A DNA stretch of 12,059 nt, taken from a virus. Taxonomy: Duplodnaviria; Heunggongvirae; Uroviricota; Caudoviricetes. Position numbers and translations under genes: made by a program. Where the stretch lies: IMG/VR virus record IMGVR_UViG_2713896791_000029. The stretch is one strand, 5' to 3'. Each line of letters starts with the position of its first letter. The first letter of the stretch is position 1. Of the stretch, positions 9,211 to 9,785 are shown piece by piece. Below the pieces are notes generated by a model that saw nothing but the letters and a program-made list of their open reading frames with translations, ran no database searches and was not told the DNA's origin.

Positions 9211-9406
9211 GGCACACCTCCTGACGAATACGGGCAGCGAATACCATCACGCAGCCAGCCGGAGATTGCTGGCGTGCTTCCTGTTCGCTGGTGGCCTCAA
9301 TGGTAATCACGCGCGGTTGTGCCGTGCTCAGGGCGATAAAACGCCAGATGTATTTATTCAGGTTGTGCGAGTCCCGCCCTTGCGGGTGTGTGGTATGATT
9401 TCTCAT
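9200..9406 (-). CDS. Small protein (68 aa), first gene of the long leftward operon; possibly Icd-like (host cell division inhibitor family)
   Basis: GAGGTA Shine-Dalgarno upstream of the ATG at 9406. The C-terminal pattern ...EATSEQEARQQSPAGCVMVFAARI resembles what I recall of Icd-like proteins in P4-type elements, but this is a weak memory-based call. The 342-aa ORF in the track that contains it is an antisense artefact. Confidence 0.4.
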   Translation of the reverse strand: MRNHTTHPQGRDSHNLNKYIWRFIALSTAQPRVITIEATSEQEARQQSPAGCVMVFAARIRQEVCHVQ

Positions 9407-9502
9407 AGCTACCTCGATACTTTCGCTATCGTTGGTGGTTAGAAGCCCGGTTAGTGTTAGCGCACTGCCGGGTTTCGTCGTTTCTGCACCTTGCGCCAAC
9501 AA

Positions 9503-9556
9503 GGTGTTGAACACCAATTTAAACCCAGGTGTTAAACACGTCAAGTGTTGAACACT
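9503..9556. promoter_or_regulatory. Three palindromic operators GTGTTnAACAC in the divergent control region
   Basis: GGTGTTGAACACC (9503-9515), GTGTTAAACAC (9529-9539), AGTGTTGAACACT (9544-9556). They lie between the leftward operon start (9406) and the rightward RHH gene (9606). Confidence 0.55.
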
Positions 9557-9605
9557 TATTTTTTTTCCTGCATACTGCATTTGTTTTTTATGAGGGGTAC
9601 ACCAC

Positions 9606-9785
9606 ATGGCGACAAAAGCAGTAAACGCAAAATCACAAACCGTTGCGGCAAGGGTTCCGCATGAAGTTATGAACAATGTTGAGGCGGTAAAAATGCCTGG
9701 CGAAAGTACGGGGCAATTTGTTACTGCAGCATTAAAACGAGAAGTTGAATATCGCCAGCGGCGCAAGGCCAAAGAACCAGAGTAA
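9606..9785 (+). CDS. Small ribbon-helix-helix-type DNA-binding protein (59 aa), candidate repressor
   Basis: Below the cutoff of the ORF track. GAGGGG Shine-Dalgarno 8 nt upstream of the ATG. The sequence TVAARVPHEVMNNVEAVKMPGESTGQFVTAALKREVE has the beta-strand/helix/helix layout of Arc/CopG-type regulators. Confidence 0.55.
   Translation: MATKAVNAKSQTVAARVPHEVMNNVEAVKMPGESTGQFVTAALKREVEYRQRRKAKEPE

Follow-up and report, generated by a model that had tools for sequence, protein, structure and literature searches.

An exchangeable ribbon-helix-helix repressor module as the probable immunity switch of an EcCICFT073-type phage satellite

EcCICFT073 is the model Gram-negative phage-inducible chromosomal island (PICI) (Fillol-Salom et al. 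2018, PMC6092414). Helper phages switch on its alpA gene, which once switched on activates itself, and over-expression of AlpA without phage leads to excision and replication; helper-phage induction and high-frequency transfer are known for EcCICFT073 only (PMC6092414). In the literature on these elements AlpA is the activator, the repressor is called ‘unclear’, and the difference from the repressor-based strategy of Gram-positive islands is called a mystery (PMC6092414). In the satellite P4, eta/kil is a long open reading frame (ORF) just after an alpA/vis homologue that holds the immunity determinant and the internal early promoter PLE; a short product is made from the internal transcript and a long one from an upstream, helper-activated transcript, the latter being protected by its translation (PMC10111431). 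Here we analyze IMG/VR record IMGVR_UViG_2713896791_000029, a 12,059-nucleotide stretch of Caudoviricetes DNA (in full, the window), and within it the region between alpA and a leftward replication operon, where a gene for a 59-residue ribbon-helix-helix (RHH) protein faces the operon. We estimate a probability of roughly 0.7 that this region, with the mechanism proposed below taken as a whole, is the immunity switch of an EcCICFT073-type PICI. All functional statements rest on sequence comparison, from which we infer binding, repression, RNA expression and the route of induction.

The island in the window is syntenic with EcCICFT073, lies at the same roxA/phoQ site and is 74–94% identical to it in DNA over most modules; it is thus an EcCICFT073-type Gram-negative PICI, that is, a phage satellite. 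EcCICFT073 also shares the architecture of the control region: its YlcI/YnfO gene is accompanied by three sites and an Icd-like gene, and a long ORF starts after alpA. Its immunity module differs from that of the window in the β-strand (SQALKAR), in the sequence of the sites (GTGTGGCCCAC) and in having a canonical site behind the -10. The searchable literature on EcCICFT073-type elements makes no mention of the RHH gene and yielded no described repressor for this satellite family; literature searches on YlcI, YnfO, DUF3950, PICI RHH and EcCICFT073 likewise returned no functional study of the gene.

The initial annotation had placed three near-identical GTGTTnAACAC palindromes between the start of a long leftward operon and a rightward 59-residue gene. 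This holds: three exact copies (Table 1) lie between the start codons of the Icd-like gene at 9406 and the RHH gene at 9606. When at most one mismatch is allowed, the window contains four matches against 0.30 expected, a number that none of 200 shuffles reached. Among 36 distinct close relatives no palindrome-arm position is variable (0/30), the central N varying at two sites, whereas 66 of the 166 other intergenic positions vary (~40%). The three palindromes are real and under selection. The fourth match (10464–10474, one mismatch, at the alpA start) was set aside as probably due to chance, a single such match being within expectation and lying outside the control region; across 25 loci of 3–12 kb no cognate motif was found outside that region. 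Relative to the RHH start codon, the canonical layout of most relatives places sites at -102, -77 and -32, the last directly following a conserved TATACT. The lineage of the window has kept the first two, lost the third and carries an extra site at -61.

Two divergent promoters can be placed on this layout. The leftward one, P_left, is predicted to be near-consensus and recurs as TTGACG/17-18/TAnnnT at constant offsets from the RHH start codon in all 22 class representatives, EcCICFT073 included. O1 adjoins its -10 and covers the predicted start site, O2 fills its spacer, and the extra operator lies immediately upstream of its -35 and contains the -35 hexamer of the likely RHH promoter. The hexamers of the latter match at 8 of 12 positions, which is under the scanner threshold; TATACT or CATACT stands as its -10 at -36 to -31 in most relatives. 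The RHH gene has the Shine–Dalgarno sequence GAGGGG at 9592–9597, 8 nt before its ATG. A divergent control region, as originally claimed, is supported; the layout is kept in 109 related loci, and the geometry of the sites fits repression of the operon promoter combined with negative autoregulation.

Table 1. Position of the control elements and of the genes around them in the window.
Feature	Position	Strand	Details and basis
Operator O1 (GTGTTGAACAC)	9504..9514	.	-102 from RHH ATG; position kept in all class representatives
Operator O2 (GTGTTAAACAC)	9529..9539	.	-77; within the 17-bp spacer of the leftward promoter
Extra operator (GTGTTGAACAC)	9545..9555	.	-61; confined to the GTGTTGAACAC class
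Leftward promoter P_left	9516..9544	-	-35 TTGACG (9544-9539), 17-bp spacer, -10 TAAATT (9521-9516); promoter scan
RHH-gene promoter (likely)	9548..9576	+	-35 TTGAAC (9548-9553), 17-bp spacer, -10 CATACT (9571-9576); by eye, homology to locus L004
YlcI/YnfO-family RHH protein, 59 aa, proposed repressor	9606..9785	+	
Putative cis-antisense RNA	9407..~9480	+	two hairpins (9407-9440, 9442-9476), then U-rich tail; covariation, folding
Candidate extended -10 for the antisense RNA	9391..9399	+	TGgTATGAT, inside Icd-like codons 3-6; by eye
Icd-like (host cell division inhibitor-like) protein, 68 aa	9200..9406	-	gene 1 of the leftward operon; NCBIfam NF033153, phrog_6196, PGAP
Open frame of 342 codons (‘stop-free corridor’)	9200..10228	-	first ATG at 10228; ORF list and frame analysis
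57-aa ORF 3' of the RHH gene	9843..10016	+	probably same transcript; phrog_21027, E 1.6e-15
alpA-type regulator/excisionase gene	10286..10474	-	Pfam PF05930, PGAP; function from PMC6092414
Tyrosine integrase	10830..12059	-	island end adjoining roxA; Pfam-level search and annotation

The product of the rightward gene belongs to a family that is uncharacterised so far. It scores 59.7 bits on the NCBIfam profile YlcI_YnfO_N (NF041551; cutoff 30) over residues 9–50, and the Prokaryotic Genome Annotation Pipeline (PGAP) gives it the same name. An AlphaFold2 model built with 33 homologues reaches a predicted local distance difference test score of 80, and about 91–92 over residues 21–50. It shows an extended N-terminus followed by helices at 19–28 and 35–56, the strand-helix-helix arrangement of a fold of ~45 residues. 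The structures that the model matches are solely RHH structures; a Foldseek search with it gave nothing significant. Sequence comparison is less telling: Pfam returned no family at threshold for the protein and its 33 homologues, faint sub-threshold matches to the RHH-related CB_ParB_C and PSK_trans_fac appeared in a few family members, a profile search of the family against PDB sequences gave noise only, and neither a curated profile nor a solved protein of the RHH superfamily was matched. As modeled, the protein has an RHH fold. The substitution pattern indicates that its gene is under strong purifying selection, with variable positions at 28 of 59 third codon positions versus 2 and 4 at the first two, and a mean BLOSUM62 score of +0.27 for the mismatches between classes. 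The protein ends in a short basic tail, and neither an adjacent known toxin nor the C-terminal toxin-binding extension of a type II antitoxin was found. Its homologues come from many Enterobacterales genera. A tblastn search of 50,697 phage records returned one weak match, in a 16.5-kb ‘induced prophage’ that may, going by its size, itself be a satellite; the gene is therefore not a common phage gene.

Comparison across loci allows the protein to be connected with the sites. The 109 loci were taken from reference genomes of many Enterobacterales genera (31), from IMG/VR (80) and from several E. coli records, and span Escherichia, Salmonella-type, Pectobacterium, Kosakonia, Serratia, Proteus, Xenorhabdus and others. 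Many of the IMG/VR loci are closely related, and statistics were computed on de-duplicated sets and on one representative per class. Wherever flanks were recovered, and almost throughout the first 31 loci, the genes follow one order: int, alpA, in some cases a BRO-N gene, the opposite-facing RHH gene and the Icd-like operon. The positions of the sites are kept, and their sequences fall into about a dozen motif classes (17 operator clusters came out of the clustering, a few of them artefacts of offset). The sites of one locus all vary jointly, in step with protein residues 9–16 and the N-terminal arm. Residues 10–16 SQT[VLI]AAR go with site GTGTTGAACAC, SQSVTAR with GTGTAAGACAC, SQ[SA]LK[SA]R with GTGTGGCCCAC and S[KR]KLEAR with GTGTCAGCCAC; SK[KR][IF]D[VA]R goes with GTGTC[AG]GACAC and SQK[VL]QAR with GTGGA[GC]TCCAC, and the MTRD arm accompanies both SQKMSAR with CTGGCACCCAG and SQKIQAR with CTGGATTCCAG. 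Residues 11–15 and the N-terminal arm covary with the 11-bp dyad, and an apparent recognition code relates residues 12 and 14 to its inner 5 bp. In two loci, L034 and L083, asymmetric sites occur inverted within a single locus, which fits a symmetric dimer on a pseudo-dyad.

The specificity module can also be separated from its surroundings. Operator class and RHH residues 1–16 agree with an adjusted Rand index (ARI) of 0.83; the value is 0.40 when operator class is compared with the hairpin, 0.30 with the left flank and 0.17 with the right flank. One backbone type occurs with four or five different modules. The converse case is L002 (NZ_BAUC01000010.1, labelled Edwardsiella hoshinae NBRC 105699), in which positions 5790–6175 carry the module of the window at ~95% DNA identity (window ~9350 to ~9775) and encode an RHH protein identical to that of the window over 57 residues. 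Its flanks cannot be aligned with the window, and Int, AlpA and RepA are only 24%, 31% and 34% identical. This is either a recent cross-genus cassette transfer or a mislabelled or contaminated contig. By this comparison the module of ~430 bp travels as a cassette between unrelated backbones, like the immunity regions of heteroimmune phages. Because operator/protein covariation and cassette exchange together match the pattern of heteroimmune regions, the RHH protein appears to be the only reasonable binder, and it very probably binds the palindromes. The comparative data single out the originally proposed repressor as the binder of the sites, the operator changing with its N-terminal arm and β-strand independently of the flanks.

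It is very improbable that the palindromes serve another binder, be it AlpA, PerC, a host factor, a helper protein or a peptide from the strand opposite the RHH gene, or that they are replication iterons. AlpA is a known DNA-binding activator of such islands, and an opposite-strand frame necessarily covaries with the RHH gene. Operator class is nevertheless independent of alpA/int and of the left flanks (ARI 0.17–0.30) while tracking the RHH N-terminus, and L002 and the window have module and sites in common on wholly different backbones. The opposite-strand peptide evolves like non-coding sequence, with a BLOSUM62 mean of -0.96 against +0.27 for the RHH frame, and the idea that coding selection in the overlap acts on the minus frame instead of the RHH frame was accordingly rejected. 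The 11-bp dyad, whose half-sites are separated by 6 bp, suits one RHH dimer in one major groove, not a helix-turn-helix dimer. Position and covariation with the RHH protein led us to reject iterons and a replication origin: the sites lie ~1.2 kb from the replication gene and on a promoter.

Several individual loci extend the picture of where such modules occur. In E. coli, 1302 of 5426 complete genomes match at least part of a 380-nt query; in many of them DNA comparison matches the leader only, and two such loci that were inspected also have a YlcI/YnfO gene. Pectobacterium betavasculorum (L019) carries two Icd-like/RHH pairs ~4.5 kb apart, at 5620–6168 and 10193–10735, with an integrase between them; they look like tandem satellites with different modules and would offer a natural test of heteroimmunity. 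In E. coli ERL03-1416 (L034, 6260–7264) an island with the same switch, of the GTGTAAGACAC class, sits inside the large-terminase gene of a prophage; helper-embedded PICIs of this kind have been described (PMC10111431). Three Xenorhabdus loci (L013, L021 and L022) have an intact RHH gene beside an operator region that is partly deleted or replaced, and these switches may be decaying or rearranged.

From the arrangement in the window we propose the following first layer of control. Dimers of the 59-residue protein would bind the 11-bp dyads GTGTT-N-AACAC, and occupation of O1 at the start site and of O2 in the spacer would block the strong P_left promoter, from which the Icd-like gene and the replication and capsid operon would be expressed. 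Occupancy of the third site, which holds the RHH -35, would produce negative autoregulation; in relatives the site right after the -10 could do so instead. Repressor, operators and promoters would together form the ~430-bp cassette, of which about a dozen mutually exclusive motif classes appear to be exchanged between islands, and islands at one chromosomal site could therefore be heteroimmune.

A second element lies between the Icd-like start codon and O1, where a two-hairpin structure is conserved. Across 55 distinct sequences, compensatory changes are seen at 14 of its 21 predicted pairs, a level that neither shuffles nor slid registers approached. The fraction of cells that pair is 96.4% on the plus strand versus 82.7% on the minus strand, with 166 versus 8 G·U pairs. 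Folding of 9407–9487 gives -35.1 kcal/mol (z -4.55) for the plus strand and -20.5 kcal/mol (z -1.99) for the minus strand. The predicted RNA is fully complementary to the 5' leader of the Icd-like mRNA and to its Shine–Dalgarno sequence (9415–9411). A TAnnnT hexamer occupies the same alignment columns, 7–8 nt before the first helix, in all leader types. An Rfam scan of the window gave no family at threshold, and up to E 1 neither C4 nor isrK was matched; SymR (RF01809) matched the plus strand at 9407–9479 with 33.3 bits (E 0.0036), below its gathering score of 61, so that membership is not indicated. We read the structured plus-strand RNA, presumably expressed, as a countertranscript that adds a translational lock. 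At ~75 nt and begun inside the first Icd-like codons, it would pair with the leader and ribosome-binding site of any mRNA that escapes repression. The account of a divergent switch in the initial annotation thus stands for the control region and is incomplete in lacking both this RNA and the stop-free frame described below.

One alternative is that RHH protein, operators and RNA form a local safety lock on a toxic Icd-like gene, comparable to toxin–antitoxin systems or to P1 c4-icd, instead of a master switch, with the remaining operon expressed from alpA read-through or internal promoters regardless. In its favor, annotation makes the first downstream gene a homologue of a cell-division inhibitor, the RNA is similar to the type I antitoxin SymR both by its geometry and by its weak Rfam match, and cognate sites are found here only. 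We nonetheless consider a local lock quite unlikely, as near-consensus P_left heads overlapping or closely spaced ORFs that run to the helicase and beyond, in every locus the conserved module opens the replication zone, and the neighbouring ORFs match no toxin family.

The third element of the region is a long open frame on the operon strand, which spans 361 codons without a stop between the alpA stop (10286–10288) and the Icd-like stop; seen from the Icd-like ATG, it reaches upstream over 293 open codons as far as the alpA stop codon. Having passed antisense through the 57-aa ORF and the RHH gene, it traverses promoters, operators and leader and joins the Icd-like gene in frame. In 37 non-redundant loci the Icd frame is stop-free across the intergenic region in 24, compared with 1 and 3 for the other two frames, and several further loci are open in another frame. 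When the frame is anchored on the RHH gene, with which it shares wobble positions, the 108-nt operator segment is stop-free in 20 of 21 class representatives, against 1/21 in each of the other frames and a shuffle null of 8% (binomial ~2e-21, with the representatives taken as independent). Long ORFs in relatives encode 170–540 residues and often start at most ~10 nt from the alpA stop; the equivalent in EcCICFT073 has 428 residues, and its N-terminus looks BRO-N-like by eye only. PGAP annotates a pseudogene ‘missing C-terminus’ at window 9781–10228 on the minus strand, which by eye is the N-terminal part of the long frame, with a BRO-N-like segment deleted relative to EcCICFT073.

What is conserved in this corridor seems to be its openness. 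The peptide shows no detectable codon-phase bias, and the codon-phase test over 9786–10228 gave no clear signal on either strand. A conserved folded protein as the product of the corridor was rejected, because a domain search with the N-terminal 147 residues of the 342-residue ORF and with ten long ORFs from relatives found no Pfam or PHROG domain except the Ash/Icd C-terminus. A stop-free frame with unconserved amino acids therefore points to selection for openness, not for protein sequence.

These observations suggest how the switch may be overridden. Most likely a helper phage turns on alpA, alpA activates itself, and its transcripts run on through the translated corridor; with ribosomes attached they would enter the Icd-like gene in frame and bypass both locks, in-frame entry requiring neither P_left nor the masked ribosome-binding site. 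Convergent transcription from alpA would moreover collide with that of the RHH gene, so that repressor synthesis falls and P_left opens. A different route, on which the RHH protein equally binds the operators, is induction as in Staphylococcus aureus pathogenicity islands (SaPIs), with a helper protein acting as antirepressor to remove the RHH protein and with read-through and open frame being irrelevant. This is the model of the initial annotation, in which the island stays silent pending a signal from the helper, and it is drawn by analogy from SaPI Stl. Such a route would be in keeping with a small repressor divergent from its operon, which resembles the Stl/Rpr switches (PMC6092414); the many specificity classes could reflect an arms race, and the terminator after alpA in L034 argues against obligatory read-through. 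We hold this route to be unlikely, though the least so of the alternatives. AlpA alone induces EcCICFT073 and helpers act through alpA (PMC6092414), so that read-through fits better than an antirepressor. The variable residues belong to the DNA-reading N-terminal arm and strand and covary with the DNA, which explains the diversity of classes without a protein partner, and an antirepressor leaves the stop-free frame unexplained. Read-through from alpA is, in our judgment, an equally good or better induction route.

Some findings weigh against the switch as proposed. For the antisense RNA, no convincing -35 was found, and the TG motif of its candidate promoter is canonical in the leader type of the window only. 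The corridor is missing in the Icd frame in ~10 of the 37 non-redundant loci, and outside the Icd part its peptide is not conserved (mean BLOSUM62 of mismatches -0.96). L034 has a strong terminator behind alpA and carries BRO-N as a gene of its own; read-through is thus not guaranteed everywhere and may differ between lineages. The operators themselves are spaced 25 and 16 bp from centre to centre, without helical phasing. The fuller picture of a three-layer nested switch, made up of an exchangeable antisense-embedded RHH repressor, a countertranscript RNA and AlpA-driven translated read-through, is a tentative one that we put at less than even odds. In its first layer the RHH gene may lie in a wobble-sharing register inside an Eta-like ORF that is BRO-N-like by eye and has an Icd-like C-terminus.

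The remainder of the island agrees with its assignment. A searched part of 1.5 kb of the window is identical to E. coli O103:H2 strain 12009, where the ~10 kb island is flanked by phoQ and roxA. It encodes integrase, AlpA, RepA helicase, single-stranded DNA-binding protein (SSB), PerC, capsid and decoration proteins and a TerS-like gene. On the minus strand the order is integrase, AlpA-type regulator, the plus-strand RHH gene intervening, Icd-like protein, several small ORFs and RepA-type helicase, followed by SSB, the PerC homologue, the major capsid and decoration proteins and the TerS-like protein. It thus has the features of EcCICFT073-type PICIs, namely int and alpA at one end, a replication module, few captured late genes, a size of ~10 kb and a specific attachment site. 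Two masked runs of N at 7356–7419 and 8429–8478 fall inside the RepA-helicase and DUF4222 genes and give rise to translations with X and distorted ORF lists there. Two stretches cannot be aligned with EcCICFT073, 2453–3246 (the TerS-like region) and ~7000–8430 (the replication gene), while the rest of the island aligns; EcCICFT073 has a primase as replication gene where the window has a RepA helicase, and its TerS-like region differs as well. Modular exchange in the island extends beyond the immunity cassette.

The short ORF downstream of the RHH gene encodes a basic product and travels with the backbone, not with the specificity module. CFT073 annotates a gene of equal size and position and near-identical sequence, and O103:H2 12009 has no annotation there; the codon-phase signal is weak, no Pfam family was found and the sole PHROG match is one of unknown function. 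Directly 3' of this ORF a direct repeat, ACCAG[AC]CTGATAGC, occurs at 10007–10020 and 10028–10041, 21 bp apart, and beside it stands ‘attgcccaccagcc’, which is kept in L034 and EcCICFT073; this region could be a site for another regulator such as AlpA. A PerC-family gene lies at 5986–6258 on the minus strand. The PerC-like gene of the PICI EcCIMP1 is reported to repress LEE1 instead of activating it (PMC11773190), a result that may bear on the LEE (locus of enterocyte effacement)-positive O103:H2 background.

If the proposal is correct, it supplies the missing repressor: Gram-negative PICIs would then possess a master repressor, of about a dozen heteroimmune types and with a readable code of protein–DNA recognition, and the module is present in the model island EcCICFT073 itself. 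The YlcI/YnfO family would gain a function, and heteroimmunity groups would be predicted among satellites that have an integration site in common. The classes would further amount to a compact natural set of orthogonal repressor/operator pairs useful for synthetic biology, and the locus would be a tractable example of a translated frame in which a protein gene is maintained in antisense. The matter is of considerable interest to the satellite field, and a model system exists for direct testing.

Several known systems resemble parts of this switch. In the immI region of phage P22, Arc and Mnt are small RHH repressors at the divergent promoters Pant and Pmnt. The likeness lies in short dyads over divergent core promoters, control of an antirepressor/Bro-network operon and autoregulation; there is no detectable sequence similarity, P22 has two repressors versus one here, and the system of the window belongs to a satellite rather than a phage and adds an antisense RNA and a nested open frame. 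Plasmid copy control likewise combines a protein repressor with a countertranscript, as in CopB/CopA of R1 and CopG (an RHH protein)/RNAII of pMV158, and in R1 read-through from a promoter further upstream supplies the operon as well. As is proposed for the window, a replication operon is controlled twice, by a small repressor acting on its promoter and by a cis-antisense RNA directed at its leader or ribosome-binding site. These plasmids are, however, another type of element with no detected homology, and only in the window does the repressor gene lie antisense inside the read-through path, with specificity cassettes swapped between elements. The YlcI (DLP12) and YnfO (Qin) proteins of E. coli K-12 share the family NF041551 with the window protein, although YlcI is only 22% identical to it. 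The ylcI gene (L119, 3252–3835) lies at the right end of the lambdoid prophage DLP12 beside nohD, separated from it by sequence that we take, by eye only, to resemble lambda cos. On reading the sequence upstream of ylcI we saw no triple-operator layout, and the family thus has at least two genomic contexts. With SymR/SymE the system would share a ~77-nt antisense RNA of two hairpins that runs from the start codon of the target over its ribosome-binding site, and the two RNAs are weakly similar in sequence and structure; the target here is Icd-like, not SymE, and the Rfam score is far under the gathering score.

Among satellites, P4 eta/kil is similar in having a long ORF after alpA that contains an internal early promoter and in the Icd/Ash-type C-terminus. 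Its immunity is an RNA (CI/seqA), whereas the window would rely on an opposite-strand protein repressor with operators together with a cis-antisense RNA, and no C4 or isrK match marks P4-type RNA immunity in the early-operon leader. In SaPIs (Stl) and Gram-positive PICIs (Rpr) the repressor is co-transcribed with int, divergent from the xis-rep operon and inactivated by a helper protein; in the window the RHH gene is divergent from the operon, lies between alpA and the operon, and is opposite to int and alpA in orientation. The parts are thus of known kinds, namely RHH proteins at divergent promoters, a repressor with a countertranscript, and a nested ORF over an immunity promoter. Their combination, of which we found no description in the searchable literature, differs in three respects: an antisense repressor gene in a corridor, about a dozen exchangeable cassettes, and presence in the model Gram-negative PICI.

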